Assembly (NCBI GenBank): GCA_034189655.1
Contig: JAXHUE010000005.1
Location: forward strand, 4,408 to 68,407
Source of the DNA: Chloroflexota bacterium
Lineage (GTDB): Bacteria > Chloroflexota > Dehalococcoidia > E44-bin15
DNA length: 64,000 nucleotides
Direction: 5' to 3'
The notes beneath the pieces were generated by a model. That model saw only the letters and a list, made by a program, of their open reading frames with translations. It did not search any database and was not told the DNA's origin. Each line of letters opens with the position of its first letter. The first letter of the stretch is position 1. Below, piece after piece: positions 26,977 to 52,800 of the stretch. Position numbers and translations under genes: made by a program.

Positions 26977-27065
26977 TGGGGGGCTGCTCCCACGGGAAAT
27001 GGGGGAAAGGCCCCGCAAAAATGGAGGATAGCGTGGTCGTATTTTGGGCCCGTCATTGGTAGCGT
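26977..27065 (+). promoter_or_regulatory. Conserved promoter module, copy 1 (upstream of the GGDEF gene)
   Basis: AAAATGGAGGATAGCGTGGTCGTATTTT at 27018-27045, TAGCGT (-10-like) at 27060. Ungapped similarity to 45666-45754. Confidence 0.7.
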
Positions 27066-27112
27066 CAAACGGTGGGGTGTGCCCGGAGAGAAAACGGAGC
27101 GGAGAGGGTTAG

Positions 27113-29326
27113 TTGTATACGCTACTGCTGTTCTTCATATTCCTGTTCCTGTTCCTCTTCCTTATGTTCCTGTGCCTGTACTTGGGGGACATCGGCAACA
27201 AGAGGAGGGCACGGGAGAAGGTGCTGGGCCACGCCAGGCGGCTCGAGGCGCTCAACGCCGTGGCGCAGACAGTGAGCAAGACGCTGGAGCTCGACGAGCT
27301 GCTCCACAGCGCCCTGGCCACGGCGATAGAGGTGATGGGGGCCGATACCGGCTCTGTCTTCGAGATCGACCTGTCGGCGAGCGAGCTTCGGCTCAGGTCA
27401 TACGTGAACGTTTCCGACGGCCTGGTCGACAGGGTGCTGCGGCTACCGCTGGACGACGAGGAGCTGGAGCGGGCGCTCCAGTGGACGGACCCCAGTGTGT
27501 CGGTGTGGGAGGTCTTCAGTGAACATAACCTCTTACTCATGGCAGAGGCGATGCAGCAAGAGCAGGTGCGCTCCTTCGCCGTGGTCCCCTTCTCGGCCCG
27601 GGACCAGCTCCACGGCTTCATCAGCGTGGGGGCCTGCCTGGAGCGCCAGTTCGGGCCCGATGAGATCGAGCTGCTCCAGGCCATAGGCAACCAGATAAGC
27701 GTGGGGCTGGAGAACGCACTGCTCTACCAGGACGCCAGGGACAAGGCGGTGCGCCTGGAGACACTCCACGCCATCGCCGCCACCTGCAGCCAGAGCCTCG
27801 ACCTCGACCGCCTGTTCGCTACCGTCCTGGACAAGATACTGGAGCTCACCGATGTGGACGCCGTCCTCATCTTCTCCGCCGATATCGCCATAAAGCGCGC
27901 CTGCCTCAGGGCGCACCGGGGGATAGGCGACGAGACCGCCGAGCTGGTGCGGGAGCTGGAGCTGAGCGTGGAGAGAGATACGGCCGAGGGCTTCATCGCA
28001 CGGGGCCAGCCCATACTCGGGCTGCGGCAGATGCTCAGCGAGTCTGCCCTCTCGTCGACCATGGGGGCAGTGCGGCGCGAGGGGCTCAAGTCCTTCCTCA
28101 CGCTTCCCTTCAGGTCGCGGGAGAGGTTCCGCGGCGCCGTCATCCTGGCCTCACGCGCCGAGCGCCACTTCAGCCCCGACGAGATCGGCCTCCTGGAGTC
28201 CATCAGCAACGAGCTCGCGGTGGGCATAGAGAACGCCAACCTCTACCAGCAGGTATCGGAGAAGGCGGAGCGCCTGGCCCTCATCGCCGAGGTGACCAAG
28301 GTCATCGGCTCCAGCCTCTACATCGAGGACGTGTTCGAGGGCTTCGTCGCCGGCATCAAGCGGCTGGTGGACGCCGACCGCGTGGCCATCAATGTCATCG
28401 AGGGTGAGACCAAGCGCGTCTTCGCCGTATCGTCAAAGGTGTCCACTGAGCTGGGGTGGGGGGTGTCCTCTCCCCTCGCTGGCTCGGCCACTGAGTGGCT
28501 CATGAACCACCGCAGGCCCATCGTCGAGGACGACCTGGCAGCGGACACGATGTTTGAGAGCAGCCGCATCCTCCATGAAGAGGGCTTCAAGTCGGCCATC
28601 AGGCTGCCCCTCATCGCGCGCGGCGGCGTCATCGGCTCCTTCAGCGTGAGCAGCCGCCGTCCCCATGCCTACTGCGGTCGGGAGCGTGAGCTACTGGAGC
28701 AGGTCACCGGACAGCTTGCCATGGCCGTTGAGAACATGAGGCTCTACCAGCACACGGAGTACCTGGCCTGGACCGACGGCCTCACCGGCCTCTACAACCG
28801 GCGCTACCTCGCAGAGCAGATGGGGCGGGAGCTGGCCCGCGCCCAGCGGCTGGACGTCCCGCTCTCGCTCATCCTCATCGACCTGAACGAGTTGAAGCGG
28901 GTCAACGACCACTTCGGGCACGAGGCAGGGGACATGCTGCTGTGGGAGCTCAGCCGCATCATCCACGAGAGCATGCGCCGCTCCGACATCGCGGCGAGGT
29001 GGGGCGGCGATGAGTTCCTCATCATGGCAGCGGAGGCCGACATCGACGGCGCCGATGCCCTGGCGCGGCGCATCGTCTCTAAGGTGGTGCGCTTCCGCAA
29101 GAAGGTGAACGACGAGTGGGTGTCCCTGGGGGTGAGCATAGGCATCGCCTCCTATCCCGCCCACGCCGAAAGCCTCCTCGACCTGATCAGGAAGGCGGAC
29201 GAGGCCATGTACTGGGCCAAGAGGAGGGGGAGGGGCTCTTCCATCGCCAGGGCACTGCCCGACGGCGAGCAGCCCAGCCCCGGCAAGGACGGGGCCAGCA
29301 TAGGCACGTCCACCAAGATGAAATGA
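27113..29326 (+). CDS. Membrane-anchored diguanylate cyclase (TM-GAF-GAF-GAF-GGDEF)
   Basis: TDGLTGLYNRR, VNDHFGHEAGD, RRSD I-site, RWGGDEF, three GAF domains ending ENA.LY/ENMRLY. TTG start. Confidence 0.93.
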   Translation: MYTLLLFFIFLFLFLFLMFLCLYLGDIGNKRRAREKVLGHARRLEALNAVAQTVSKTLELDELLHSALATAIEVMGADTGSVFEIDLSASELRLRSYVNVSDGLVDRVLRLPLDDEELERALQWTDPSVSVWEVFSEHNLLLMAEAMQQEQVRSFAVVPFSARDQLHGFISVGACLERQFGPDEIELLQAIGNQISVGLENALLYQDARDKAVRLETLHAIAATCSQSLDLDRLFATVLDKILELTDVDAVLIFSADIAIKRACLRAHRGIGDETAELVRELELSVERDTAEGFIARGQPILGLRQMLSESALSSTMGAVRREGLKSFLTLPFRSRERFRGAVILASRAERHFSPDEIGLLESISNELAVGIENANLYQQVSEKAERLALIAEVTKVIGSSLYIEDVFEGFVAGIKRLVDADRVAINVIEGETKRVFAVSSKVSTELGWGVSSPLAGSATEWLMNHRRPIVEDDLAADTMFESSRILHEEGFKSAIRLPLIARGGVIGSFSVSSRRPHAYCGRERELLEQVTGQLAMAVENMRLYQHTEYLAWTDGLTGLYNRRYLAEQMGRELARAQRLDVPLSLILIDLNELKRVNDHFGHEAGDMLLWELSRIIHESMRRSDIAARWGGDEFLIMAAEADIDGADALARRIVSKVVRFRKKVNDEWVSLGVSIGIASYPAHAESLLDLIRKADEAMYWAKRRGRGSSIARALPDGEQPSPGKDGASIGTSTKMK

Positions 29327-29389
29327 CATCACGGGCACCGGCGATGACGGGGCCACCACGGGGAGAGGGCAGCCCTCTCCTGTACGAGC

Positions 29390-31576
29390 ATGTATGCTAT
29401 GAGTAGCGTGAGAGTAGCAGTCACAATACTTGTCACAGTGGCCATGCTGGCCACCTGGGGCACTGCCCTGGCCCTCTCGCCCACCCCCTCGCTGGCGCAG
29501 CTTGAGCCCGCCATAGCCTTCGCGCCTGACGGGATGGAGTTCAGCGCCGTCGAGAACGGCGAAGACCCCGCCCCGCAGACGCTGGAGGTCTGGAACGGCG
29601 GCAACGGGACGCTGGAGTGGGCCGTAGAGTGCGACGTGGACTGGGTGTCCCTGGAGCCGCTGGCCGGGGCCTCGGGTAACCCCATGGACAGTAACCCGGT
29701 GACGGTGACCGTCGATATCTCTGGCCTCGCCGCCGGCAACCACACCGCCACCATAACCATCACCGACGGCGATGCCATAAACAGCCCGCAGACCATCCCG
29801 GTCACCCTGACACTGGCCCCCGACATAGACTACAGCCCGCAGGGCTTCCTCTTCACCGCGTGCAACGAGGACCCCCCGGCGCAAGTGCTCTCCATCGAGA
29901 ACATCGGCTCGGAGGTACTCTCGTGGTCGCTGGACGTCGAGTATGGGCCGGGCGGGCCCACGGGCTGGCTCGTCCCCTCCTACACCAGCGGCGCCGCCGG
30001 CGTCGGCGAGACGGACGACATCGACATCGCGGCCAATGTCACCGACATCGAGAGCGGCACCCACAGCGCCACCATCGTGATAAACGGCAACAGCCTGCCG
30101 GTGGCAGAGGTCGATGTCACCCTGCAGCTCAACCTGCCGGCCATAGAGTACAGCCCGGCCAGCCTGGACTTCAGCGCCGTGGCGGAAGGGCCCAACCCGG
30201 CGCACCAGACCTTGAGCATCGCAAACGGCTGCGAGGGCACCCTGGAGTGGTCCCTGGACAACGGCGATGTCACCTGGCTGGCCCTGGCGCCCTCCAGCGG
30301 CAACTGCACCGTGGGGAGCGTCCCGGTGTCCGTCTCCGTCGATATCACCGGCCTGGCCGCGTGTACCCTGGAGACCGTTATCACCATCACCGCACCCGGC
30401 GCTACCAATAGCCCCCAGACCGTGCCCGTCACCCTCACCGTAGCGCCACCGGTAACCCCCACCCCGACGCCGACCCCCTCCCCGACGCCCACGCCGACAC
30501 CTACCCCCACGCCCACGCCCGACGCCACGCCGCCGACACTGGAGGGCCTGGGGTGGGCCGACAACGACGGCTCAGGCGATGTGAGCGCCGGAGATGTGCT
30601 CCAGTTCACCTTCAGCGAGGAGATGGACACCACCACCATCGACAGCGTGGACGAGATAAACTCGCGCCTGGATAGCTCGGCATCGGGCACTACGGACTAC
30701 GGCGCTACGTTTACCTATAGCTGGAACGCGGCAAAGACGGTGCTCTCGGTGACCCTGGGGCCGGCCCCGGCCATGAGCGTGGGCAGCACAGTCAACCCCT
30801 CGAACGATGTGAAGGACACGGCGGGGAACCCCGACGCTACCACGGCGCCGGGGCCGGCCCTGCTCTCTACGCCGACGCTTACCCCCACACCCAGCGCCAC
30901 ACCTACACCGACGCCCACACCCACGCCTACGCCCACCCCGACGCCGACACCTACCCCCACGCCTACGCCGACACCGACGCCCACCCCCACGCCCACGCCC
31001 GACCCCACGCACGTGACCCGGGTGGTGGGTATCGGTGCCGAGTCGGTGTCGACGCCCGACGGCAGGGTGACCGTCAACTTTGCCGCGGGGACCTTCAGCA
31101 GCTCCAGCACCGTGAGCATCCGTCACAGCTCAAGCTGCCCCGGGGCCCCCGAAGGCTACGCCAATGGCGGGATCTGCGTCTCCATCACCTCCACGCTCAC
31201 GCCCCAGAAGCCGGTCACGATTTGCCTAAACTACACCAGCAGTGACCTGACCGCGGCAGAGGGAGACGCCTCCAGGCTGAGGATCGGGTACTACGATAGC
31301 TCCACGTCGACCTGGTACATCCTGCCCTCCACTGTGAACGAGGGCATGATGACGGTGTGTGCCGAGGTCGACCACTTGAGCAGCTTCTCGGTGCTCGCCG
31401 CCCCACCTTCCGCGGGAGGCTTCCTGGGACTCCCGCTGTGGCTCCTGATAGTCATCATCGTCGCCCTGGCAGTGGTGGGAGGGGCCATCTACTGGCTGTT
31501 CTTCGCCAATCCCCCTGGCGGCGATGACGAGGACGATGACGAGGGTGAGCCGATGTGGGGGAGCGCCACCCCTTAA
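29390..31576 (+). CDS. Secreted surface protein: signal peptide, three BACON/Ig-like domains, PT linkers, Ig-like domain, C-terminal TM anchor
   Basis: Repeated P..QTL.I.N.G...L.W...WL motifs, (PT)n linkers, VDHLSSFSV before the TM, acidic tail. Confidence 0.8.
30455..31005 (+). repeat. Two Pro-Thr coding repeats (~30455-30520 and ~30870-31000)
   Basis: (ACN CCN)n translating to TPTPTP linkers. Confidence 0.9.
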
Positions 31577-31590
31577 GGCCTCACACCACA

Positions 31591-31846: not shown

Positions 31847-32056
31847 CGCCCACGCCTTTACCCAGGACAAGGTTATACCACAGCGGATATCGCCATCCGG
31901 GTAGACCGTGGTCGCCATGAAGGAAGGTGAGAGGGCTGCCGCGGCGGCACCGTGGGGGAAAGGGCGAAAAAAGGGGACATCCAGGGGACACAGGGGACGA
32001 GCTCACCAGCCCTTGCCAGGATGGGGTAACCAGTCTATAATTCGAGGGGAGGGTTG

Positions 32057-32090
32057 CCCAGCGGGGAAGGAGGGTGTAATCCCCGCTGGG
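32057..32090. promoter_or_regulatory. Perfect 11-bp inverted repeat (CCCAGCGGGGA-N12-TCCCCGCTGGG) upstream of the DUF5658-like gene
   Basis: Read directly from the sequence. The same half-site recurs at 33793-33803. Confidence 0.5.
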
Positions 32091-32104
32091 CCGGTGCTAT
32101 ATAC

Positions 32105-32410
32105 ATGGCGCACGCGCTTTTGGACTCTGCCGCCACCTTCAGGAGGGGTGCGGCCGAGAAGGTATCGTTTGTGCTCTTGAACCAGCTGGACCTGGTACTG
32201 ACCGTTGTTGCCCTGTCCATAGGTCTCCAGGAGCTGAACCCCATCATGCGCAGCGCGGCGACATCACCCCTTCATCTGGTGCTGCTCAAGCTCGCCCTGC
32301 CGCTGCTCATCGCCTGGCTCGTCCCGGGCAAGCTTCTCCTGCCTGCCATCGCCCTCCTCGCATTCGTGGTGGGCTGGGACGTGAAGGAGCTGCTCCTGGG
32401 TATTCCCTAG
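32105..32410 (+). CDS. Small membrane protein, DUF5658-like
   Basis: LNQLDLVLT...G..ELNPIM...LLKL pattern, hydrophobic. Confidence 0.7.
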   Translation: MAHALLDSAATFRRGAAEKVSFVLLNQLDLVLTVVALSIGLQELNPIMRSAATSPLHLVLLKLALPLLIAWLVPGKLLLPAIALLAFVVGWDVKELLLGIP

Positions 32411-32434
32411 GCCCCCCATATCCGTGCACTGTCA

Positions 32435-33178
32435 CTAAGAGTACGAGGGGACCATCACCTTCCTTTTTCTGCGCAGGTTTGGCGAGAGCAGCTCACCGGT
32501 TGCCTCCAGGTAGAGCCTCGCGGCGCTCACCCTGGCGTGCTTATCTCCGAAGTTGGTCTCTGCCTTAAGCTTGCCGTACATGCTGTTGATGTGGTTCTCA
32601 ACCGTTCTCACATCTATGTACAGGGTCTCAGCTATCGCTGAGTTGGTGTACCCCTTGGAGAGCAAGCTCAAGATCTCCAACTCCCTGGCAGTAAGCTGTT
32701 TCAAGAAGGGATACTCAGGGTTCTCGGTGAACAGGAAACCGGCCAGGGCCGGGTCGAGAATGACCTGTCCCCGGCTGGCGGCAATGACGATACCCGTCAA
32801 CTGCTCGATGTGGTCCAAAGACTGCTTCAAGAATAGTGCCACTCCCCCCTCGCCCTTCAAGGCAAGGTCCCGCAGCAGCTCTATATGCTCACTATCATAG
32901 GATACCAGGAAAAGGACTATCCCGATGCCGGGGTTGTCGGCACGTATCTGCTCCAGCTCCTCGATGATGGCCTCATCGAGCTGCTTCGTTCCTACCATCA
33001 GTACATCGGGACCCTGGGTCAACACCTCACGACGCGCGGCACTTATATCGCCGTTCCTGAACACACTCACCAGATCAACGCGGTCGGTCTGGGAAAAGAC
33101 AAACCGGCATGCCTCCCGATGGAGCTCCTGCTCCTCCACTACAAAGAGCCGCACCGCCTTTGCTTTTGTCTGTGCCAT
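32435..33178 (-). CDS. Atypical NarL/LuxR-family regulator (pseudo-receiver plus LuxR HTH)
   Basis: LTARELEILSLLSKGYTNSAIAETLYIDVRTVENHINSMYGKL. The receiver has VVEE and LMVG in place of the phosphoacceptor Asp. Confidence 0.9.
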   Translation of the reverse strand: MAQTKAKAVRLFVVEEQELHREACRFVFSQTDRVDLVSVFRNGDISAARREVLTQGPDVLMVGTKQLDEAIIEELEQIRADNPGIGIVLFLVSYDSEHIELLRDLALKGEGGVALFLKQSLDHIEQLTGIVIAASRGQVILDPALAGFLFTENPEYPFLKQLTARELEILSLLSKGYTNSAIAETLYIDVRTVENHINSMYGKLKAETNFGDKHARVSAARLYLEATGELLSPNLRRKRKVMVPSYS

Positions 33179-33406: not shown

Positions 33407-33491
33407 TCTTCGGCAACCCGGCCATCCTGCTCCAGCTTCGGATCCGTGGCTTTGCGCCCCGCGATCTCTCGCGGTTTGCCTTTATCGGCAC
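33407..33491 (-). ncRNA. c-di-GMP-I (GEMM) riboswitch
   Basis: Minus strand reads GCCGAUAAAGGCAAACCGCGA-GAGA-UCGCGGGGCGCAAAGCCACGGAUCC...GGAUGGCCGGGUUGCCGAAG, with GGCAAAC, a GNRA-capped P2, GCAAAGC and a 3' GGGUUGCCGA. Confidence 0.88.
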
Positions 33492-33685: not shown

Positions 33686-33828
33686 CTGGGACTGGGGTGG
33701 TGCCCATTATGTCATACCACTCTCCCAATTGCAAGGGGTGCTAGCCCCTAATTCCAGTGATGGAACACTCTCAATCGCCTTCGGGGGACACCCCCAGCGG
33801 GGATAGGGGGTTTAGTGCCACGCAACAT

Positions 33829-33894
33829 TTGTGGAAATACCCCGCCAAAATGAGGGCTGCCATCGTAGAACTGGACAGGCGAAGGCGGTAGAGT
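33829..33894 (+). promoter_or_regulatory. Conserved promoter module, copy 2 (upstream of the archaellins)
   Basis: GGAAATACCCCGCCAAAATGAGGG. TAGAGT at 33889 lies exactly 42 bp after AAAATG (33847), as in the other two copies. Confidence 0.6.
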
Positions 33895-33933
33895 GTTGTC
33901 ACCGCTATGCCCAGCACACAAAAAGGGGATGCA

Positions 33934-34560
33934 GTGCGAGTAAATTGGGCACGAAGGCTAGCCGGCGATCAGCGAGGCATCACTGGCCTCGAGACCGCCA
34001 TCATACTCATCGCGTTCATCATGGTTGCCTCGGTATTTGCCTATGTGGTCCTCTCGGCGGGCCTGTTCTCCTCGCAGGAGGCGAAGGAGGTGGTCTACGA
34101 GGGAGTGGAGGAGGCCAGGAGCACCGTCCAGCTCAGGGGCAACGTCCTGGCCAGGATGGAGGGCGGGATAGCCACGGAGGTCTACTTCACCGTAGGCAGC
34201 ATGGCGGTATCCGAGCCCGTGGATTTCACCGATACATCAGAGGGGGACAACGTGGTGGTGATCTCGTACAGCGATGCCTATAACCAGTACCCCTCGCTGG
34301 ACTGGACCATGGAGCGTATTAGCACCATGAACGATGACAACCTGCTGGATGCCAACGAGCTGTTCCAGGTCACCGTAGACCTCGCGCAGGTCAACTGGGA
34401 GGACTGGGAGGCCGACCCCCCCCAGACACCGAGGCCATCGGAGCAGCAGCTGGTGGCCTATCGCGGCTTCACTCTGGAGGTAAAGCCCCCCAATGGGGCG
34501 GTGCTCACTATAGAGCGCACCCTGCCTGCGAGGGTAGAGCAGGTAGTGAATCTCTACTAG
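33934..34560 (+). CDS. arlB: Archaellin (ArlB/FlaB) 1
   Basis: Class III signal peptide RRLAGDQRG|[57 protein letters not shown] 33934 has an SD, ATG 33907 is an alternative start. Confidence 0.92.
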   Translation: MRVNWARRLAGDQRGITGLETAIILIAFIMVASVFAYVVLSAGLFSSQEAKEVVYEGVEEARSTVQLRGNVLARMEGGIATEVYFTVGSMAVSEPVDFTDTSEGDNVVVISYSDAYNQYPSLDWTMERISTMNDDNLLDANELFQVTVDLAQVNWEDWEADPPQTPRPSEQQLVAYRGFTLEVKPPNGAVLTIERTLPARVEQVVNLY

Positions 34561-34666
34561 GGGGGCACCAGATGGATACGATTTACCAGCAATGGGTCGA
34601 AAGGAGGTGAGGCATACACTTCGATCGTGACGATAACCATATCCTAGATATAGGAAAGGAGGAAAA

Positions 34667-36253: not shown

Positions 36254-36325
36254 AGCGGGGTAGGCCTATGTGAAGAAGAGGAGATGTCACCCGCTGACCA
36301 GGAGCAACTCAGGAAAGGAGGAAAA

Positions 36326-36988
36326 ATGCTCAAGAAGCTAACACGACCGATGCACAAGGATGAGAGGGGGATAACCGGCCTGGAGACGGCCATCATCCTC
36401 ATCGCCTTCGTGGTGGTGGCCGCGGTGTTCGCCTACACCGTGCTCAGTGCCGGGCTGTTCTCCACCCAGAAAGGCCAGGAGGCAGTCTACTCCGGGCTCG
36501 AGGAGGCCCAGAGCACCTTGCAGCTAAAGGGCGGCGTCATCGCCAAGGCGACCACCACCGGCGAGACCGGCACCATTGGCCAGATAACGTTCACCGTGAC
36601 CAACGCCCTCGGCGGCGAGGCCATCGACTTCACGGAGCCAACGGCAGACACCACCGACAACGATGGCAAGGCCCACACCAACAGCAACAACGTGGTGGTG
36701 ATCTCCTACATCGACGACCACCAGCGGGTGGAGGACCTCTACTGGTCCATCACCAAGCTGGGAGAGGCCGATGCCGATAACCTGCTGGAGATCGACGAGA
36801 AGTTCCAGATCACCATCGGGGCCAGCACTACTGCGGGGGCGAGCGGCGGCAACCTGGTGAATGCCCTGGAACCCGACCTCTCGATAAACGATACCTTCAC
36901 CATAGAGGTGAAGACTCCCAAGGGGGCGGTGCTGCCCATAGAGCGGACGACACCTTCCTACATCGACACCGTAATGAGCCTGAACTAG
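36326..36988 (+). CDS. arlB: Archaellin 3 (compact, candidate major subunit)
   Basis: KDERG|[10 protein letters not shown], strong AGGAGG SD before ATG 36326. Confidence 0.94.
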
Positions 36989-37034
36989 GCATGGTTACAC
37001 AAGCGATAGCGCCGTGAAGAGAGTTGATATGGGT

Positions 37035-37082
37035 GGGAAGGGTTTTCCGGGCCCGCTCGCGCAAGGTGCGGAGGCCCTTCCC
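37035..37082 (+). terminator. Stem-loop between archaellin 3 and 4
   Basis: GGGAAGGGTTTTCCG...CGGAGGCCCTTCCC, no clear U-tract. Confidence 0.45.
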
Positions 37083-37111
37083 TTGCCAAATCGAGAAAGG
37101 AGGAAGGCTAG

Positions 37112-38233
37112 ATGATCCGGAAGCTAAAGAGCATTCACCGCAGCCAGGAAGGGATAACCGGTCTCGAGACGGCCATCATCCTGATCGCCTTCGTCGTGGT
37201 GGCCGCGGTGTTCGCCTACACCGTGCTCTCCGCCGGGCTGTTCTCCACCCAGAAAGGCCAGGAGGCAGTCTACTCCGGGTTGGAGGAGACCAGCTCCACC
37301 CTGGAGCTGCGGGGGAGCGTCGTCGCCTACACCACCGAGATACAGATAGACGACTGCGAGAACGCGTGGGACGACACCGTCGCCGGGGTGACCACGTCGG
37401 CGGATACAGACCGCAAGGAGGGCAGCTACAGCTCCAAGCTGGTGATCGCGAGCGGGTTCGCCGGCGGTCTGGTCTCCTACTACGACACCTCGACGTTAAT
37501 GATGCCCACCGCCGACAAGATACGTCTCTGGATCAAGGCCGATAGCGACGTAGCGGCGAGCGTCTTCGACTTGAACCTGTGCTCGGACAATGCCGGCGCG
37601 GTCTCGGTCGAGGACCTGGCCATCCCGGCACTGAGCGCCAACGAGTGGACGCTCGTCGAGCTCTCCCTCGCTGACCCGTCTGCCTGCACCGCCATCGAGT
37701 CGGTGGCGCTCTACGATGACGGAGACGCCGCGGGGGTCGTGAACGTGTGGCTGGACGACATCGAGATCGTGCCCTACGTCAACAAGGTAGAGTGCACCGT
37801 GACCAACGCCCTCGATGGGGATGCCATAGACGTGACCCCGCCCTACGTCATCGACTCGGACGGGAACGGCAACCTGGCGCCCAGCAACCTGGACAACGTG
37901 ATCCAGATCGCATTCAGCGATGACAACACCTTCATCGCCGAGTGTGCCTGGACCCTTTCCTGGGTGGGCAAGCACAGCGACGACTACCTCCTCGAGATCG
38001 ATGAGAACGCCGTCATCACCGTGTGGCTGGTGGACTACCCGTACAGCAGCACCAACAGCATGCTGTACTACGACCACGGCAGCGACGATAGCGACCCCTT
38101 CATCGACGATGAGGAGAAGCTCATCGGCACAAATCACACGTTCACCCTGGAGGTGAAGCCGCCTAAAGGTGCCGTGCTGCCCATCGAGCGCACTACACCC
38201 GGCTACCTGGACACAGTAATGGACCTTCACTAG
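37112..38233 (+). CDS. arlB: Archaellin 4 with one inserted CBM-like domain
   Basis: RSQEG|[10 protein letters not shown], insert IDDCENAW...VWLDDIEIV, C-terminus [18 protein letters not shown]. Confidence 0.92.
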   Translation: MIRKLKSIHRSQEGITGLETAIILIAFVVVAAVFAYTVLSAGLFSTQKGQEAVYSGLEETSSTLELRGSVVAYTTEIQIDDCENAWDDTVAGVTTSADTDRKEGSYSSKLVIASGFAGGLVSYYDTSTLMMPTADKIRLWIKADSDVAASVFDLNLCSDNAGAVSVEDLAIPALSANEWTLVELSLADPSACTAIESVALYDDGDAAGVVNVWLDDIEIVPYVNKVECTVTNALDGDAIDVTPPYVIDSDGNGNLAPSNLDNVIQIAFSDDNTFIAECAWTLSWVGKHSDDYLLEIDENAVITVWLVDYPYSSTNSMLYYDHGSDDSDPFIDDEEKLIGTNHTFTLEVKPPKGAVLPIERTTPGYLDTVMDLH

Positions 38234-38245
38234 CGTTCACTTGCC

Positions 38246-38279
38246 AGGGGTGGGGGCACCTTTAGGGGCCCCCACCCCT
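38246..38279 (+). terminator. Strong hairpin between the archaellins and the motor genes
   Basis: AGGGGTGGGGGC-ACCTTTAGGG-GCCCCCACCCCT, 12-bp perfect stem. Confidence 0.6.
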
Positions 38280-38389
38280 CGTGGCCCGATACGATCAGAA
38301 GGGCCTTTGTGAGAATTGGGGGGGCGGTGGGGCGGGTGGTGCGGTGGCCAGGACCTGTTACTCACAGGAACAGATAGGAGTGGTCTTCT

Positions 38390-38866
38390 GTGGACAAGGT
38401 AGTGACGACGGCTCTGCTGATCATAGCGGGGATCATATGTACCGTATTCATCTTTAACAGCGTCTACCCGATGGTGAACCGTTCCAGCGAGGCCATGGTG
38501 AGCATGGCTGAGAACATAGACGAGAGGATGAAGAGCAGCATAAACATAGTGCACGCGGCGAGCTCGTCCGACCGGCTCACGCACTATGTGTGGGTGAAGA
38601 ACGTGGGGGATGCCCGCATCACCACCATAGAGAGGAGCGACGTGTTTTTCGGCAAGGAGGGCAGCTTCTCTCGCGTTCCCCACACGTCGGAGGCCGGCGC
38701 CAGCTACCCCAGGTGGAGCTACACCATAGAGAACGATGCCGAGTGGAAGAAGGGTGCCACCGTGAAGATAACCATCACCTACGACGTTGACCCGGGGACC
38801 GGGACCTACTTCGTGAAGGTGATCATACCGAACGGGATAGCGGATGAGTACTACTTCAGCATTTAA
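38390..38866 (+). CDS. arlG: Archaellum stator protein ArlG/FlaG
   Basis: N-terminal TM, ERMKSSINIV, VWVKNVG, DVFFG, W..GATVKITI, GTYFVKVI.PNG. Confidence 0.85.
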   Translation: MDKVVTTALLIIAGIICTVFIFNSVYPMVNRSSEAMVSMAENIDERMKSSINIVHAASSSDRLTHYVWVKNVGDARITTIERSDVFFGKEGSFSRVPHTSEAGASYPRWSYTIENDAEWKKGATVKITITYDVDPGTGTYFVKVIIPNGIADEYYFSI

Positions 38867-38877
38867 CGGAGAGGAGA

Positions 38878-39411
38878 ATGGAGACTGCTATCGTCTCGTT
38901 GATATGCATCGCGCTCATCGTGCTCGGGGGGATGACCATCTCGCAGAGCTTCCTCGACTCGGTGGACAGCACCAGTAGCGGCCTCGAGGAGATGGGCGAT
39001 AGGGCCGGGGAGATCATGCGCACCGAGCTCTCTCCCCTCTCTGGGAGCCAGTCCCAGGCCGAGGTGCTGGACATATGGCTGGGGAACGATGGACAGACCA
39101 AGCTGGGCTCGTTCGATAAGTGGGATGTCATCGTTCAGTACTACGACGACGGCGGCTCGTATCACATAACGTGGCTTCCCTACACCGAGGAGGTGCCGGG
39201 AGACAATAAGTGGACGATAGCGGGGATATACCTCGACGTGGAGAGCTCGACGCCGGAGGTCTTTGAGCCAGATATCTTGAACCCAGGAGAGGACGTGGCG
39301 ATCGAGGCCAGGCTCGACCCGCCCGTGGGGGCCGGTACCACCAATATGGTGATAGTCGCCACCCCCAATGGCATCGCCACCGTCATCCCCTTCGCCGGAT
39401 ACCAGCCATAG
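38878..39411 (+). CDS. arlF: Archaellum stator protein ArlF/FlaF
   Basis: N-terminal TM, N.G.T.L...WDVIVQY, LNPGE, VIVATPNG, position after arlG. Confidence 0.8.
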   Translation: METAIVSLICIALIVLGGMTISQSFLDSVDSTSSGLEEMGDRAGEIMRTELSPLSGSQSQAEVLDIWLGNDGQTKLGSFDKWDVIVQYYDDGGSYHITWLPYTEEVPGDNKWTIAGIYLDVESSTPEVFEPDILNPGEDVAIEARLDPPVGAGTTNMVIVATPNGIATVIPFAGYQP

Positions 39412-39464
39412 CCGCTCCGGAGGTCGACCTCCGAGACAGCGGAGGTCGCAGAGGAAAAGGCAGC

Positions 39465-40970
39465 ATGAAGTTTGGAAGGCTTGGCAAGAGGCCAGAGGCG
39501 GGGGAGGGCGCACCGACCAAGGCGGCAGGTAACAGCAAGTATATCGACTTCGACCTGCTCTACCAGCTCTCCTACATGTCCGTCATCGCTGCGGCGGGCG
39601 TTCCCCGCAGCCAGATATTCGAGCGCTCTTCGCAGCTCTCGAACGCCTCTTCCAAGTATTTCAGGAAGATACAGCTCACCTGCCAGAGGCTGGGCTACGA
39701 CTACGCACGGGCGTGCCGGGTGGTGGGAGAGCAGGCGAAGGAGGAGGACATCAAGGGGCTCCTGCTCCGCTTCTCGAGCTCCCTGGTCTCCGGCGAGCCC
39801 GAGGCCGAGTTCCTGACCAGGGAGGCAGAGGCCCTGGCCAAGACCTACGACAACGAGTACGAGGGCAAGCTGGAGTCACTGCGGCAGTGGACCGATGCCT
39901 ATGTGTCCCTCACACTCTCGGCGGTGCTCGTGGTCATCATCGGCCTGGTATCTACCATGATATGGAAGATGGATACCATATTCATCATGGGGCTCATGGC
40001 GGTGTGCATCGGTTGCACTGCCGTGGGGGTATGGCTGCTCTATCTCATGTCGCCGCGAGAGGTCATGGTCCTGGGCTGGGACGCGCAGGGAAGGGGCGTC
40101 GTGAGGAAGGCGCTCAAGTTCTTCCTCCCCGCTGCCGTGGTGGTGTGCATCGTGCTCCTGGTACGGGGGGCAAACATCGGATGGATACTGCTCATCGGGG
40201 CTGCCCTGGTCTTGCCCATAGGGTTCGTGGCCTCGCGCGACGATAAGAAGGTGTCGGCGCGGGACGCCGAGGTGGGGCCCTTCTTGAGGTCACTGGGCGG
40301 TGTCTGTGCTGCCATAGGGACAACGGTGCGGGACGCCCTGGGGCGGCTGGACCTGGATTCGATAAACACGCTCAGGCCCCAGGTGAAGAACCTGCACACC
40401 AGGCTCGTCTCCGGCATCAGGGCCAGGCTGTGCTGGCAGCGGTTCATCGAGGAGACGGGGAGCGAGCTCGCCAGCAGGAGCGTGACCATGTTCTACGACG
40501 CCATCGATATGGGGGGAGAGCCGGAGCGGGCGGGGTACCACGCCTCGATCTTCGCCAACAAGATCGCGATGCTGCGCGCCCGGCGGAGGGTGGTGTCGTC
40601 ACCGTTCCACTGGCTGTGCATCGCCATGCATGGTGCGGTCATCATGCTGTTGGTCTTCGTCACCGAGGTGATCACCATCTTCGGGGGGATGGTGGCCGAG
40701 GCCGAGGAGGCCATGCCCCAGAGCCCGGGCGCCGCCTCGATGACTAGCTTTGCCAGCTTCAACTACTCAGGGATCGAGCTGATGGGCCGCATCGTGCTGC
40801 CCCTGGTCTTGATATTCACCGTGGCCAATGCGCTGGCCCCCAGCATAGTCGACGGCGGAAGCAAGTGGAAGTTCCTCTACCCGCTGGGGATAACGGCGGC
40901 CATATCGGGATTGAGCCTGATTGCGCTGCCCGGCGTGGCCACCTGGCTATTCAGCTCGATACAGATGTGA
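39465..40970 (+). CDS. arlJ: Archaellum platform protein ArlJ/FlaJ
   Basis: DLLYQLSYM, LGYDYARAC, SGEPEAEFL, YEGKLESLRQWTDAY, FLRSLG, two-repeat GspF-like fold with TM helices. Confidence 0.92.
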   Translation: MKFGRLGKRPEAGEGAPTKAAGNSKYIDFDLLYQLSYMSVIAAAGVPRSQIFERSSQLSNASSKYFRKIQLTCQRLGYDYARACRVVGEQAKEEDIKGLLLRFSSSLVSGEPEAEFLTREAEALAKTYDNEYEGKLESLRQWTDAYVSLTLSAVLVVIIGLVSTMIWKMDTIFIMGLMAVCIGCTAVGVWLLYLMSPREVMVLGWDAQGRGVVRKALKFFLPAAVVVCIVLLVRGANIGWILLIGAALVLPIGFVASRDDKKVSARDAEVGPFLRSLGGVCAAIGTTVRDALGRLDLDSINTLRPQVKNLHTRLVSGIRARLCWQRFIEETGSELASRSVTMFYDAIDMGGEPERAGYHASIFANKIAMLRARRRVVSSPFHWLCIAMHGAVIMLLVFVTEVITIFGGMVAEAEEAMPQSPGAASMTSFASFNYSGIELMGRIVLPLVLIFTVANALAPSIVDGGSKWKFLYPLGITAAISGLSLIALPGVATWLFSSIQM

Positions 40971-40980
40971 GGGCGGGACA

Positions 40981-41166
40981 ATGGACCCACAGCAGAGGCT
41001 TCAGGCGCTGGAAGACGAGTTCCAGGAGCTGAAGGAGGAGTGGCGGCGCATCCTCCTGGACATTCGCGCCTTCCTCATGGAGCTCCACACCCCCCTGCCC
41101 GGAGAGTGGAGCGCGGGAAAGGGCCCCTCCCAGGGCGGTTCAGGAAGGAGGGATGAGCACCCATGA
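40981..41166 (+). CDS. 61-aa coiled-coil protein resembling the N-terminus of the next gene
   Basis: RLQALEDEFQELKEEWRRILLDIRAFLME versus KIDALEGEFKLMKGELKHTLISIRDFLLN. Its stop overlaps the next ATG. Confidence 0.7.
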   Translation: MDPQQRLQALEDEFQELKEEWRRILLDIRAFLMELHTPLPGEWSAGKGPSQGGSGRRDEHP

Positions 41167-42263
41167 CCATGGAGAAGAAGATCGACGCGTTGGAGGGGGA
41201 GTTCAAGCTGATGAAGGGGGAGCTCAAGCATACCCTCATCAGTATCCGCGACTTCCTGTTGAACGCCAGGCCGGCGCCCCTCGATATAGAGGAGGTCCCC
41301 GAGACCGACTCGGAGACCCTGATACCTGCGGAGGCCTACGTCCCGCCGCCCCCGCCTCAGGAGACCGATGACGACGACTCCCCGCTGTCACCGGGGCCGG
41401 CCGAGGATACAGTGCAGCCGCCGTCTGCGGAGATGGCGGTGGACGAGCCGGAGCCGCCTGAAGAGAGGTCGGAGGCAGTGCTGCCGCCCCTCGTGGAGGA
41501 CGAGGACAACACTGTCCCGCCGCTGCCAGAGGCCGAGGCGGTGGAGGGGCAGGTGCCGGGTACAGGGGAGGAGGCGCTCGACGATATGGGGACACCGCCG
41601 CCGATAGAGGAGGTCGAGGACACAGCGCCGCCATCGGCGGAGATGGCCGAGGGGCCGGCCCCGCAGCCGCCGCTCCGGGAGTCCGCGCACCACGTCCCGC
41701 AGCCGCAGGGCCCTTCCGATTTCATGGTGGAAGAGACCGTGGTGGAGGAGGACATACTCGATGAGCCCCCCGCGGCCGCCGGTTACGGCGCAATACCGTG
41801 TGAGGAGGACATCCACTCACCGCTGCCCTTCGACGAGGGACCGCTCGACGTGCTGTCCGCACTCGATGACATAGACGAAGTGCCCTCCCTGCCCCCAGAT
41901 GACGCGCCGGCCGAGGCCAGGCCGCCGACGGAGAGACCCCAGGGGGCGAGGCGGGAAGCGCCACCACAGGCACTCAAGGAGGAGAGGATGAAAGAGACAA
42001 ACGGGTCACTTTCCCAGATGAATTCGCTGGCCAATCTCATACGCTGGGTCTCGTCCGCCAAGAAAGAGATAGGGACCCAGCAACTGCCCACCTTCCTGGA
42101 GGCGTTCCGGGCCCACGGGCCGCTCCCGGCGGAGATGAAGGAGCTCATCCTGCACCTCGCAGTGGTGGTGGAGGAGCCGCCTGAGCGCCTGAGCCCGGCG
42201 GAGATATGGAGCAGGCTCGCCCTGGAGCTGCACGCCATCCTCCAGGACGGCGCACACCAGTGA
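41163..42263 (+). CDS. ArlD/E (FlaD/E)-like accessory protein
   Basis: N-terminal coiled coil, long acidic Pro-rich linker, C-terminal LANLIRWV...IG...LPTFLE.F...G resembling the FlaD/E domain. Confidence 0.6.
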   Translation: MTMEKKIDALEGEFKLMKGELKHTLISIRDFLLNARPAPLDIEEVPETDSETLIPAEAYVPPPPPQETDDDDSPLSPGPAEDTVQPPSAEMAVDEPEPPEERSEAVLPPLVEDEDNTVPPLPEAEAVEGQVPGTGEEALDDMGTPPPIEEVEDTAPPSAEMAEGPAPQPPLRESAHHVPQPQGPSDFMVEETVVEEDILDEPPAAAGYGAIPCEEDIHSPLPFDEGPLDVLSALDDIDEVPSLPPDDAPAEARPPTERPQGARREAPPQALKEERMKETNGSLSQMNSLANLIRWVSSAKKEIGTQQLPTFLEAFRAHGPLPAEMKELILHLAVVVEEPPERLSPAEIWSRLALELHAILQDGAHQ

Positions 42264-42362
42264 GCGTGAGAGGACGGGGGCCGATGCACACTCCCAGGGG
42301 CCATCACCCCCGGGACGACGACTATTGAAGCGGCTGTAGCCGCGGCTTGGAGGTAGGATACC

Positions 42363-43082
42363 ATGATGGAGGATACCGCCTTTGCGTCTGATGTCATACT
42401 TACCGGCATCCGCGAGATGGACGAGAAGCTGGGCGGGGGCATTCCCATCGGCTCCCTGTGCATAATAGAAGGCCACTCCGATGCCGGGAAGAGCGTGCTG
42501 AGCCAGCACTTCACCCACGGCGCCCTGAGCTGCTCCCAGAGCTCCGTGGTGTACTACACCACGGAGAACACGGTGAGGAGCTTGATCGCCCAGATGGACT
42601 CGCTCTCACTGTTCACGCTGGACCACTTCCTCACCGATCGCCTGCGCATCTATCCGCTCACACTGCGCAGCGACCAGCAGGACACCAGCAGGCCCTTCCG
42701 CCTGCTGGTGGAGCACTTCGCCTACCTGCCGCGCGATTTCACGGTGCTGGTGGTGGACTCCATCACCCTCCTCGTCGCGCACAGCAGCGCGGTATCCATA
42801 ATCGATTTCTTCTCGGCGTGCAAGGACCTGTGCGACGAGGGTCGCTCCATCCTCCTGGTGGCGCACTCGTATGCCTTCGACGACGAGGTGCTGTCCCGCA
42901 CCCGTTCTCTGTGCGATGCCCACCTGAGGCTGAAGCTGCAGCAGGTGGGGGACCGCCTGGTGAAGATGCTGGAGGTGCTCAAGGTGCGCGGTGCCGACCG
43001 CCCTACAGGGGACATCGTGAGCTTCGAGATAGAGCCCAAGCTGGGCATGCGCATCATACCGCTGGCCAAGGCGAGGGTCTAG
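42363..43082 (+). CDS. arlH: Archaellum RecA/KaiC-like protein ArlH/FlaH
   Basis: EMDEKLGGGIPIGSL, GHSDAGKS, YYTTENT, VVDS, FEIEPKLGMRIIP. Confidence 0.93.
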   Translation: MMEDTAFASDVILTGIREMDEKLGGGIPIGSLCIIEGHSDAGKSVLSQHFTHGALSCSQSSVVYYTTENTVRSLIAQMDSLSLFTLDHFLTDRLRIYPLTLRSDQQDTSRPFRLLVEHFAYLPRDFTVLVVDSITLLVAHSSAVSIIDFFSACKDLCDEGRSILLVAHSYAFDDEVLSRTRSLCDAHLRLKLQQVGDRLVKMLEVLKVRGADRPTGDIVSFEIEPKLGMRIIPLAKARV

Positions 43083-43091
43083 GGGGACGGC

Positions 43092-44870
43092 ATGTACCGC
43101 CTGCCCTTCGTAGCCAAGCCCTGCCACGTCGATTGCGAGAAGAGGTGCGGCGTCACCTTCGACAAATGCCCCACTTTCCATAACCTACCCGCCGACCTGA
43201 AAGGGGCATGCCGGGAGAACCTCCACCTCTTGCAGTACCTGCATATGCTCCCGCTGGACGAGATGGGCCTGCCCGAGTACCACGTGAAGCTCAGTCGGGG
43301 CATGAGGGGGGCCCAGAACCGCAACCTGCTCTACCCGGTGGAGGGCAGGATATTCATCCACATACTGGCCAACCCGGACGATATCAGGGACCACTATATC
43401 CCCGTAGAGCCGAGCCTGCTCCGCGACATGGACCACGTCCTGGAGGAGGTGGAGCAGCGGCTCGCCGACCACGTCGAGGAGCTGGAGGGCGTGTCCAGCG
43501 ACGAGAAGAGGCTGGAGGTCATACTCAAGATAATGGACCGGATGGTCAGCACCAAGGGGGGCAATGGGGGCAAGGCACATCGCGGTGGCGGCAGAAACGG
43601 CAGTCGCACCCAGCAGGCGGGTGCCAGGGGAAAGGGGGGCAAGAACGGGAAAAACGCCCTCGCCGTGACCACCACCCAGTACCAGGGCCTGCGCTACCTG
43701 CTCAAGCGGAAGCTGGAGGGGCTGGGGGTGCTTGAGCCACTGATACAAGACCCCTACATCGAGGACATCTCCTGCTCCGGCGTGGGGCACATATTCGTGG
43801 AGCACAAGATATTCGGCGGGCTGAAGACCATCATAGGCTTCGAGGACCACGAGGAGCTGGACAAGTTCGTCATCGGGCTCGCCGAGCGTATCAAGCACCC
43901 GGTGACCTTCCGCGACCCCTGTGTCGATGCCACGCTGCCTGATGGCTCCCGTATCAACATCGTCTATGGCACCGATGTATCCAAGCGGGGCAGCAACTTC
44001 ACCATCAGGAAGTTCAGCCCGGTGCCGATAAGCGTGATAGAGCTCATCCAGTACGGCACCATCAGCTACGAGATGGCGGCCTACATGTCCATCATCATCC
44101 AGGACCAGATGAACGTGTTCGTGTCAGGGGAGACGGCCTCGGGCAAGACCACGCTGTTAAACGCGCTGGCTACCTTCCTGCCGCCGGAGTCTAAGGTGGT
44201 GAGCATCGAGGACACACCCGAGATCCAGGTGCCCCACCCCAACTGGATACGCGGCGTCACACGCGGCTCCACCAAGAGCTCGGACGCATCCGAGGTGTCG
44301 ATGTTCGACCTGCTCAAGGCCTCGCTGCGACAGCGGCCCAACATAATCATCGTCGGCGAGATCCGCGGCGAGGAGGGGAACATCGCCTTCCAGGCGATGC
44401 AGACCGGCCACGCCTGCATGAGCACATTCCACGCGGCCTCGGTGACCAAGCTGGTGCAGCGCATCACCGGCAGCCCCATAAGCGTGCCCAAGTCCTACGT
44501 GGACAACCTGAACGTGGTGGTGATCTGCCAGATGGTGCACCTGCCCAACGGGCAATCGGCCCGTCGCGTCACCAGCATCAGCGAGATAGTGAGCTACGAC
44601 TCAGTGACCGATACCTTCTCCTTCATCGAGGTGTTCACCTGGGACCCTATCGAGGACACCTTCAGGTTCCCGGGATACCGTAACTCCTACCTGCTTGAGG
44701 AGAAGATCGCGGCCAAGCGCGGCATCCCCCACGATAAGAGACACCAGATATACTCCCAGATCAAGCAGCGGGCCGAGGTCTTGAAGCGCATCCAGGAGCG
44801 GGACATCACCAACTTCTACGAGGTATACGGTGTCCTATCGAAGGCATACCGCGAGGGCTATTTCCGGTGA
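43092..44870 (+). CDS. arlI: Archaellum motor ATPase ArlI/FlaI
   Basis: DPYIEDISCSG, ATLPDGSRINIVYG, Walker A GETASGKTT, LRQRP, Walker B IIVGE, QTGH. Confidence 0.95.
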   Translation: MYRLPFVAKPCHVDCEKRCGVTFDKCPTFHNLPADLKGACRENLHLLQYLHMLPLDEMGLPEYHVKLSRGMRGAQNRNLLYPVEGRIFIHILANPDDIRDHYIPVEPSLLRDMDHVLEEVEQRLADHVEELEGVSSDEKRLEVILKIMDRMVSTKGGNGGKAHRGGGRNGSRTQQAGARGKGGKNGKNALAVTTTQYQGLRYLLKRKLEGLGVLEPLIQDPYIEDISCSGVGHIFVEHKIFGGLKTIIGFEDHEELDKFVIGLAERIKHPVTFRDPCVDATLPDGSRINIVYGTDVSKRGSNFTIRKFSPVPISVIELIQYGTISYEMAAYMSIIIQDQMNVFVSGETASGKTTLLNALATFLPPESKVVSIEDTPEIQVPHPNWIRGVTRGSTKSSDASEVSMFDLLKASLRQRPNIIIVGEIRGEEGNIAFQAMQTGHACMSTFHAASVTKLVQRITGSPISVPKSYVDNLNVVVICQMVHLPNGQSARRVTSISEIVSYDSVTDTFSFIEVFTWDPIEDTFRFPGYRNSYLLEEKIAAKRGIPHDKRHQIYSQIKQRAEVLKRIQERDITNFYEVYGVLSKAYREGYFR

Positions 44871-44945
44871 CCGTTGCCGTGAGGGGGAGCGGCTAATAGC
44901 GCGGGGGCGGCGACCGCCCCTGGTGGCAAAGGAGCAGGAGTCTCT

Positions 44946-45656
44946 ATGCCTCTGCTTTCAGCTATAACCAGTACACGAGGGCGCTTCAACAGGAAGGCCA
45001 GAACGAAGAGAGAGCTGGGCCGGCAGGGGGACGAGCATGCCCCCGATGTGGGAGGGCCGGGCGCGCGCTCCGGCAAAAAGGGCGCGGCCAGCGGTGGCCC
45101 ACGGGAGCGCTCGAAGGGCAAGGGCAGGCCCCAGGGTGAGTCGCGCCCGCGCCCGAAGAACTCGTCGCCGGGCAGGGAGGGCAAGGGCGCCCCAAAGGGG
45201 GGTAAGAAGAGGAAGCAGGGGCCGAAGGAAGAGATGAGCGGCAGCGAGAGGCTGCTCATGACACAGCGCCTTCGGGAGGAGCGGGAGTCAAGCCCGTGGT
45301 ACAAGGAGGGGGAGTCCCTGCTCAACGGCACGGACGAGCCGGCAGATGAGGGCGTCGCCCTGCCGGAGGAGACCCCCGATGTGCCCCCCGCCGCGGATGA
45401 AGAGGGGGCGGCCCCACTCCCCGGTGAGACGACGGACGAGGGCATCGGCGAGTGCCTTGTGCCGGGGGGTGCCGAGGAGGTGACCGACGAGGAGCGGGAG
45501 TTCCTGGCCTCCATTTTCAACCAGGAGATAGAGGAAGAAGAGACCGCCCTCGACCGCTTGATCGCCTCACTGCCCGATGTGACGGCCGAGGAGCTCTACG
45601 ATGAGCTGATGGAGGTGAAGACACTGATGCAGCTCAGGTACGACGTCGAGCTGTAG
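44946..45656 (+). CDS. Hypothetical archaellum-associated protein (basic N-terminus, acidic middle, helical C-terminus)
   Basis: AGGAG SD. C-terminus FLASIF..E.EEE..LDRLIASLPDVTAEELYDEL.EVK. Confidence 0.7.
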   Translation: MPLLSAITSTRGRFNRKARTKRELGRQGDEHAPDVGGPGARSGKKGAASGGPRERSKGKGRPQGESRPRPKNSSPGREGKGAPKGGKKRKQGPKEEMSGSERLLMTQRLREERESSPWYKEGESLLNGTDEPADEGVALPEETPDVPPAADEEGAAPLPGETTDEGIGECLVPGGAEEVTDEEREFLASIFNQEIEEEETALDRLIASLPDVTAEELYDELMEVKTLMQLRYDVEL

Positions 45657-45665
45657 CGGTAGGTG

Positions 45666-45754
45666 TGGGGGGCTCCTCCTACATGGAATTGGGTGCAGGT
45701 CACGAGAAAATGGGAGATAGCGTGGTCGTCTTTTTCATCGCGCACTAGTACCTT
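45666..45754 (+). promoter_or_regulatory. Conserved promoter module, copy 3 (upstream of the MCP/che operon)
   Basis: AAAATGGGAGATAGCGTGGTCGTCTTTT at 45707-45734, 25/28 identical to copy 1. TACCTT at 45749. Confidence 0.7.
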
Positions 45755-52785: not shown

Positions 52786-52800
52786 AAGGAGGCAAGGAAC

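Follow-up and report, generated by a model that had tools for sequence, protein, structure and literature searches.

How does a bacterium control a borrowed archaeal-type motor? The question is raised by a stretch of 64,000 nucleotides (the window; contig JAXHUE010000005.1, here C45) from an uncultured, Dehalococcoidia-like Chloroflexota bacterium of marine sediment, which carries an archaellum cluster in a genome of 1.79 Mb (97% complete, 65% G+C). A preliminary description of the window had noted one promoter module in three places, upstream of a diguanylate cyclase (GGDEF) gene, the archaellin genes and a chemotaxis operon headed by a gene for a methyl-accepting chemotaxis protein (MCP; the MCP-che operon), and had taken it to define a motility regulon under the local LuxR-type protein. 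The host, with its riboswitch, GGDEF and sigma-70-family genes, is a bacterium with an archaellum; the bacterial promoter logic assumed in that description therefore applies, and a reading of the modules as archaeal promoters was ruled out on the same grounds.

Six copies of one promoter module

Recounting upheld the similarities from which the module had been recognized. Positions 27018–27045 (module c1, before the cyclase gene) and 45707–45734 (c3, before the MCP-che operon) agree at 25 of 28 bases, and a further 28 of the 41 bases directly upstream match, giving 53/69 without a gap. The sequence GGAAAnnCCCCGCnAAAATG is common to c1 (27004–27023) and the region upstream of the archaellin genes (33833–33852; module c2). 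In all three copies a TAnnnT hexamer begins 42 bp after AAAATG (TAGCGT at 27060, TAGAGT at 33889 and TACCTT at 45749), and TGG-rich boxes recur about every 22 bp, those of c1 being TGGGGGG at 26977, TGGGGG at 27000 and TGGAGG at 27022 (spacings of 23 and 22 bp). The three places were real, but three was an undercount: the genome holds six copies, c1 to c6, five of them on C45 (Table 1).

The module is rare. Across the 3,573,140 genomic positions, the best matches to the 69-mer of c1 were 53/69 (c3), 47/69 (c5, on contig C38) and 38/69 at two sites, one of which is itself a further copy (c6), so that the best unrelated site reaches 38/69. The 14-mer core GATAGCGTGGTCGT occurs exactly at c1 and c3 only, among 33 genomic matches with up to two mismatches. 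A strict c1-type pattern gave four matches in this genome, three single matches in 40 relatives and seven control matches. Modules c1, c3, c4 and c5 can be aligned without gaps across ∼115 bp; counted from the G of GAT as anchor, all four have boxes at −52, −30 and −8 and TAnnnT at +33, and they also share the block GATAGCGTGGTCGT.

The motif scan suggested earlier for the genome and for orthologous loci found that the module recurs, with five sites at the top of the ranking and two syntenic positions conserved. Twenty-one non-redundant modules of relatives were combined into a matrix (the other-genome matrix), which was run over 3,574,964 positions of this genome. It placed c2, c1, c4, c3 and c5 at ranks 1 to 5, with the scores listed in Table 1; the next match scored 9.9 bits and the background was −72 ± 12. 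In leave-one-out scans c1 (69.8), c3 (44.0), c4 (20.7) and c5 (42.5) were each the best non-training match in the genome, the best non-members scoring 7.1, 11.3, 4.5 and 16.1, respectively. A matrix of all modules, which is circular for the six, gave six sites of at least 30 bits, none between 30 and 9.4, and no seventh copy.

Two members need comment. Taken alone, c2 is weak, with 37/69 to c1; it was accepted despite this because matrices derived from orthologous archaellin promoters rank it first in the genome. Module c6, which lies back to back with c1 and faces a gene for a fibronectin type III (fn3) domain protein, is graded a probable rather than a certain copy because the other-genome matrix gives it −2.0.

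The cyclase, filament and chemotaxis genes, previously suggested to be co-regulated, thus do have the module in common, and they share it with an HD-GYP gene (c4), the fn3/glycosylation set (c6) and the C38 locus (c5). A dispersed repeat unrelated to gene starts, such as a miniature inverted-repeat transposable element, was considered and rejected: the exact 14-mer is confined to two sites, and the six copies are all intergenic, each pointing at a gene or, for c5, at an unannotated stretch.

That stretch (C38:1325–1790, locus L151) comprises ∼460 nucleotides without a plausible open reading frame (ORF) and terminates at a terminator-like hairpin (1771–1784). It has no match in Rfam and no homologue in 40 relatives; it may represent a decayed gene or an RNA of unknown type. 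Close by are a divergent small receiver-like gene and, after the stretch, genes for a subtilase and a REC-GerE regulator. At C45:68610 (about window position 64203, just beyond its end), downstream of c4, only a single in-frame stop separates a 76-codon ORF, which begins at the predicted transcript start, from the HD_5 ORF; the two may be distinct genes, or the stop may be read through or be a sequencing error.

Conservation and architecture of the modules

We retrieved 80 related loci through ArlI. The archaellin module was present in 15 of the 16 unique loci in which the promoter region was covered, L073 being weak, with the consensus CAAGATTGGGGATGGTCT.GTAGT, a spacer and then GGTAGATT. A second module lies 573–861 bp after arlI, the position of c3, in 31 of the 38 loci whose ArlI is at least 60% identical, although 10 of these 31 had served in training the matrix; it was found in none of the 21 loci whose ArlI is at most 57% identical. 

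In relatives (L104:12718–17965 and other loci) the operon behind the post-arlI module encodes a histidine kinase, a double receiver, a receiver-GAF-kinase, an OmpR-type regulator and a receiver. Here the MCP-che operon stands in its place, which suggests that the promoter was conserved while the signalling genes behind it were replaced.

Three other genomes, G021, G004 and G024, were examined for the same features. Their best counterparts of this MCP and cyclase are domain-level matches only, so there are no orthologous c1 or c3 promoters to compare. A loose 15-mer pattern run over the three genomes found the full architecture at only two archaellin promoters (30 of 49 matches with flanks read). 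G024 has a distant arl cluster, in which neither such a regulator nor a module was found. A comparison of this genome with G021 shows that, upstream of the archaellins, the box block and GTAGAGT have been kept while the spacer has diverged.

The module is a cassette of ∼100 bp. Boxes of the form TGGGG or TGGAG, ∼22 bp apart, are followed by a weak −35 element (TnG), a 17-bp spacer and a TAnnnT −10 element. With the T of TAnnnT set at −12, the anchor G falls at −45 and the hexamer at +10 to +15 from the anchor is the −35 element. The distance from anchor to −10 element is 33 or 34 in 50 of 50 modules, a figure that is partly by construction, as the matrix rewards TAnnnT; TAGAGT is conserved between this genome, G021 and G004 independently of the scan. 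Conservation upstream reaches ∼−90. Box blocks abutting the −35 element are common to c1, c3, c4, c5, the 15 archaellin modules and the 29 post-arlI modules, and the post-arlI class and c1 also carry a 13-bp palindrome, GGGGnAATnCCCC, between boxes.

Three classes can be distinguished by their core elements. All six modules of this genome have T at +10 and G at +12; their −35 hexamers include TCGTAT, TCGCCT, TCGTCT and TAGAAC, and their −10 hexamers are TAGCGT, TACCTT, TACTTT, TACCGT, TATCTT and TAGAGT. The 15 archaellin-class modules always have T at +10, have G at +12 in 9/15, vary in the −35 element and carry TAGATT, TAAATT or TAGAGT as the −10 element in 14/15. For the 29 unique post-arlI modules, T at +10 and G at +12 are each seen in 28/29, the −35 element is mostly TTGCCT (TTGnnn in 27/29) and the −10 element mostly TAGCCT, with the consensus TTGCCT-17-TAGCCT. 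The idea that these are phased sites beside the −35 position of promoters was supported by the weak −35, the −10 at a fixed distance and the recurrence of the architecture in dozens of related loci. The transcription starts predicted earlier for c1, c2 and c3 (27072, 33901 and 45761) follow from the −10 hexamers.

At the related archaellin loci the −10 element lies 25–30 nucleotides before the ribosome-binding site, leaving no room for another promoter. Neither a canonical sigma-70 promoter nor a terminator competes on the plus strand of the c1 and c3 intergenic regions, and no Rfam family covers any of the modules.

The modules share one architecture, are rare in the genome, are oriented towards genes and are conserved at two syntenic positions. 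We consider it likely that they are activator-dependent sigma-70 promoters which define a motility and cyclic di-GMP (c-di-GMP) regulon. The core promoter, with its TnGnnn −35, 17-bp spacer and TAnnnT −10, would be read by the housekeeping sigma factor; two or three phased boxes lie directly upstream, the nearest abutting the −35 element, and a single transcription activator on these boxes would recruit RNA polymerase to otherwise poor promoters. Dependence on an activator is suggested because a weak −35 element is coupled to conserved sites that abut it, a combination typical of such promoters. The archaellin operon, the MCP-che operon, the GGDEF cyclase, the HD-GYP gene, the fn3/glycosylation set and the C38 locus would then respond as one, so that swimming, steering and c-di-GMP turnover would be switched together, with the abundance of the regulator presumably set by a riboswitch.

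Several points weigh against this reading. The related loci are kin, some of them near-identical, and their counts overstate independent support. The post-arlI copy is missing from seven of the 38 close loci; at L073 that place is taken by an MCP with no module, and the archaellin copy of this locus is weak; and the set of module-bearing genes differs by lineage. G021 and G004 show the archaellin copy only, and neither this MCP nor this cyclase has an orthologue in them. Within this genome, c2 is unlike the c1 type (its leave-one-out score of 1.2 is below that of c6, a non-member there, at 4.5), c6 is weak with the other-genome matrix (−2.0, about rank 23), and c3 has TACCTT and a leader of 132 nucleotides. 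The −35 and −10 elements of the copies here are far from consensus, and none passes a simple sigma-70 scan. Finally, the genome has alternative candidates for the binder, namely a 55% paralogue of the neighbouring regulator with an identical recognition stretch and a 57% OmpR-type counterpart.

The candidate activator and the competing explanations

The protein proposed as the activator is encoded divergently from the archaellin genes. It can be aligned with VraR along its whole length (residues 9–207, E 8.5e-13) and end to end also with NarL and DevR, and has a GerE-type helix-turn-helix (HTH) domain (Table 1). Its receiver domain has Gly63 at the position of the phosphoacceptor aspartate (Asp) and EE in place of the DD pocket. 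The same substitutions are seen in the G021 orthologue and in a paralogue on contig C55. The protein is thus probably an atypical, phosphorylation-independent member of the NarL/FixJ group, which fits control through abundance.

A GerE-HTH gene is divergent from the archaellin module in all loci with enough upstream sequence (14 fetched related loci, 12 of them unique, together with G021, G004 and the window). Among 41 genomes, orthologues of the regulator (E ≤ 1e-95) were found in G000, G021 and G004 only, the three genomes with a close arlI and the module, and the sole module found in G021 and G004 lies in the intergenic region between regulator and archaellins. The likely promoter of the regulator gene itself has a box, AATTAGGGGCTAGC, immediately upstream of its −35 element and TTGGGAG within its spacer.

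The boxes also resemble known sites of this family. For GerE of Bacillus subtilis the consensus RWWTRGGYN2YY is given in PMC2695774. Its core, RWWTRGG, occurs 31 times in 31 modules, and 29 of these sites lie at −30/−29, at −8/−7 or, in reverse, at −85 to −83; 18 of the modules carry it in forward boxes.

An alternative candidate is the C55 paralogue, which is 55% identical and has an identical recognition stretch, IDVRTVENHINSMYGKLK. Genes for a GAF kinase and an OmpR-type regulator directly precede it (C55:29833–32846); they are the counterparts of genes in the relatives' post-module operon. No riboswitch precedes the paralogue and no module lies near the C55 kinase and regulator genes. That the binder is either the neighbouring Asp-less NarL/LuxR-type regulator, which is the leading candidate, or this paralogue seems to us an even call.

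The architecture could be as described and the boxes be bound by another protein, either an OmpR-type regulator or one of the other members of the GerE family, of which the genome has eight; we regard this as unlikely. In relatives the post-arlI module precedes a two-component operon that encodes an OmpR-type regulator, whose 57%-identical counterpart (C55:31127–31810) is kept in this genome beside a GAF kinase, and directly oriented boxes ∼22 bp apart would, from general knowledge, suit winged-helix regulators. One of the eight GerE-domain genes is 2 kb from c5. Against this, the C55 genes have no module near them, G021 and G004 have the archaellin module without the post-arlI operon at the locus, the palindrome GGGGnAATnCCCC of the post-arlI class suits a dimeric HTH protein, and the LuxR-type gene alone always adjoins a module.

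A repressor would alter the sign of the proposal. The boxes could be operators that silence the motility and c-di-GMP genes: the sequence alone does not give the sign of regulation, and the box in the spacer of the regulator's own promoter is in a position typical of repression. In the six modules, however, the boxes lie upstream of, and not over, the −10 element and the predicted start, next to a poor −35 element. Activation is therefore what we infer, and repression we consider improbable.

We think it distinctly improbable that an alternative sigma factor, similar to the extracytoplasmic function (ECF) type, recognizes the conserved blocks as its −35 and −10 elements. The genome does encode three small sigma-70-family proteins besides the primary one, and the hexamers of its own copies are non-consensus. 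Yet conservation runs from ∼−36 to ∼−90, well beyond a −35 element; the hexamers are positioned as in housekeeping promoters (TTGnnn-17-TAnnnT in 28 of 29 post-arlI modules); and no sigma gene is found on the contig that bears five of the six copies.

Lastly, it is barely credible that c1, c3 and c5 merely remain from a recent segmental duplication and share no regulation, or in other versions that they are a leader ORF of 12–13 codons (ATG...TAG) or an RNA element: c1 and c3 do have the exact 14-mer in common, and, read from the ATG of AAAATG, c1 and c2 run in frame to a TAG at the TAnnnT hexamer, but boxes and −35 element are highly identical while the spacer agrees at 8/19 (counted by eye), the identical columns are conserved in unrelated loci, and no Rfam family matches. 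The leader-peptide ORF had been rejected separately, its ATG being ACA in G004 and its three differences from G021 falling at codon positions 2, 2 and 1; an ATG-to-TAG frame of this length nevertheless accounts for the 42-bp coincidence in c1 and c2.

Cyclic di-GMP, the gene neighbourhood and known systems

The preliminary description had also suggested that inclusion of the cyclase creates a feedback loop through a riboswitch. The leader of the regulator gene does contain a c-di-GMP-I-GGC aptamer (Table 1). When the regulator-bearing loci of 14 relatives were scanned, none had a riboswitch before the regulator at the gathering score, this genome being the only one of the 15 scanned. In G021 (L022:2326–2407) and G004 (L027:3165–3248) a c-di-GMP-II riboswitch precedes a DUF5658 gene convergent with the regulator gene. 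The DUF5658 gene of the window (32054–32410) has no such aptamer before it, and the class I variant precedes the regulator instead.

Two c-di-GMP turnover genes carry the module, one for a cyclase (c1) and one of HD-GYP type (c4), and three further HD-GYP-type genes lie downstream of the che genes. A c-di-GMP feedback loop running through cyclase and riboswitch could follow from this arrangement, its closure depending on the ligand of the GGC variant and on the identity of the binder. The four HD_5 (HD-GYP-type) genes stand consecutively after the che genes in 56230–64000, one with GAF and PAS domains and one with two HD domains; such a density of c-di-GMP phosphodiesterase-type genes beside a motility cluster is unusual.

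The remaining features of the locus are collected in Table 1. The archaellum row comprises four archaellins, arlF, arlG, arlJ, an ORF, arlH (KaiC-like product), arlI (T2SSE product) and a further ORF; neither ORF matches a Pfam family. For the first archaellin two starts are conceivable: ATG 33907, only ∼6 nucleotides past the predicted transcript start, and GTG 33934, behind AAGGGGA. Orthologous archaellins begin right after a ribosome-binding site 25–30 nucleotides from the −10 element. Behind the fn3 gene, and transcribed in its direction, lie genes for glycosyltransferases and polysaccharide export, a set that may modify the filament. In the BACON-domain gene at 29390–31576, positions 30475–31000 are full of skips, back-steps and loose ends in contigs of four metagenome runs; the repeats are of ACGCC/GACCC type, and the tract is length-variable, in a probable surface protein.

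Table 1. Promoter modules and other features of the locus. Positions are those of the window unless a contig is named; ranks, and bits in the module rows, refer to the other-genome matrix.
Feature	Position	Strand	Anchor	−35	−10	Predicted start	Remarks
Module c1, before GGDEF gene	26977–27065	+	GAT 27027	TCGTAT 27037–27042	TAGCGT 27060–27065	∼27072	rank 2, 33.5 bits
Module c2, before archaellins	33800–33894	+	GCT 33856	TAGAAC 33866–33871	TAGAGT 33889–33894	∼33901	rank 1, 40.6 bits
Module c3, before MCP-che operon	45666–45754	+	GAT 45716	TCGTCT 45726–45731	TACCTT 45749–45754	∼45761	rank 4, 15.8 bits; position as in 31/38 related loci
Module c4, before HD_5 (HD-GYP) gene	C45:68848–68940	−	68886		TACTTT		rank 3, 17.0 bits; ∼480 bp past window end; predicted start C45:68841
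Module c5	C38:1279	+					rank 5, 12.6 bits; predicted start C38:1325
Module c6 (probable), facing fn3 gene	26773–26866	−	GAC 26811	TCGCCT 26801–26796	TATCTT 26778–26773		38/69 to c1, joint third in genome; predicted start ∼26766
Likely promoter of regulator gene	33706–33760	−		TTGCAA	CATAAT		17-bp spacer
c-di-GMP-I-GGC riboswitch aptamer	33408–33489	−					RF03167, 67 bits against gathering score 59, full length 1–80
NarL/VraR-type regulator, GerE HTH	32435–33178	−					PF00196, 49.9 bits against cut-off 23.5
fn3/purple-acid-phosphatase-N domain protein gene	25803–26690	−					start probably ATG 26690 behind GAGGAGG
GAF-GAF-GGDEF diguanylate cyclase gene	27113–29326	+					TTG start behind GGAGAGGG
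Archaellum gene row	33907–45656	+					domain matches
PAS-HAMP-MCP, CheW, CheA, CheC/X-like, CheY-like receiver	45893–54296	+					MCP start probably ATG 45893 behind AAGGAGG
HD-GYP (HD_5) gene, 3′ part	63231–64000	−					c4 just beyond window end

The arrangement has partial counterparts in known systems. Class II activation by LuxR at the luxI promoter of Vibrio fischeri uses one 20-bp palindrome, the lux box. As there, a site suited to a GerE-type HTH abuts or overlaps a poor −35 element and is centred in the −40s (the proximal box lies at ∼−45 here); the modules differ in having two or three phased sites that reach ∼−90, and the candidate regulator in having an Asp-less receiver-like domain and no autoinducer domain. 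Likeness to GerE lies in the core (A/G)(A/T)(A/T)T(A/G)GG at many module boxes and in the GerE domain of the candidate, but GerE is a stand-alone HTH protein of sporulation and the consensus matched is short and degenerate.

VpsT and FleQ are regulators that bind c-di-GMP, and in Clostridioides difficile a c-di-GMP-I riboswitch precedes the flagellar operon. In these systems, as here, the second messenger is tied to a motility regulon and a GEMM-type riboswitch can stand in a motility locus; the module is, moreover, placed on cyclase and phosphodiesterase-type genes. Here, in contrast, the motor is an archaellum, the GGC-variant riboswitch precedes a regulator gene rather than a structural operon, and the regulator is without the W[F/L/M][T/S]R motif of VpsT.

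Archaeal archaellin genes are activated by EarA in Methanococcus and by ArnR and ArnR1 in Sulfolobus, which act at repeated sites upstream of the core promoter. The layout of repeated activator-type sites upstream of the archaellin core promoter is similar. Those promoters, however, consist of TATA and BRE (B recognition element) sequences served by archaeal factors, whereas promoter and regulator are bacterial here, so the control of the borrowed machine appears to have been rebuilt. In its fullest form, which we hold to be possible but rather doubtful, archaellum control would be rebuilt from bacterial parts, with an Asp-less NarL-type master regulator, its level set by a cyclic-dinucleotide riboswitch and not by phosphorylation, binding the boxes and activating as a single regulon the genes for filament, chemotaxis and glycosylation and those that make and break c-di-GMP. 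If this is true, a second-messenger feedback loop is closed around the archaellum.

It was not until 2025 that archaella were shown to function in bacteria, and Chloroflexota archaellum clusters, with archaellins and arlF, G, H, I and J as here, have been published (Nat Microbiol 2025, PMC12488501). The number of Chloroflexota genomes with an archaellum is put at 226–244 in the literature. The terms promoter, LuxR, riboswitch and c-di-GMP do not occur in the main texts on Chloroflexota archaella that were covered (PMC12488501 and related articles), and among the titles found in the literature on the archaellum with c-di-GMP or riboswitches none is on the subject. Regulons marked by a motif in activator-dependent promoters are ordinary; the motif, the regulon and the setting are new as far as our searches reach.

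The module offers a first concrete handle on bacterial control of a borrowed archaeal-type motor. It supplies predicted promoters and transcription starts and a short list of candidate regulators, and it allows further members of the regulon to be sought by sequence, as with the glycosylation set and the unannotated 460-nucleotide stretch of C38. The borrowed motor is set among c-di-GMP genes: a single cyclase gene, four genes of HD-GYP type and, in three genomes, riboswitches. Control of a bacterial archaellum by c-di-GMP is therefore a directly testable question.

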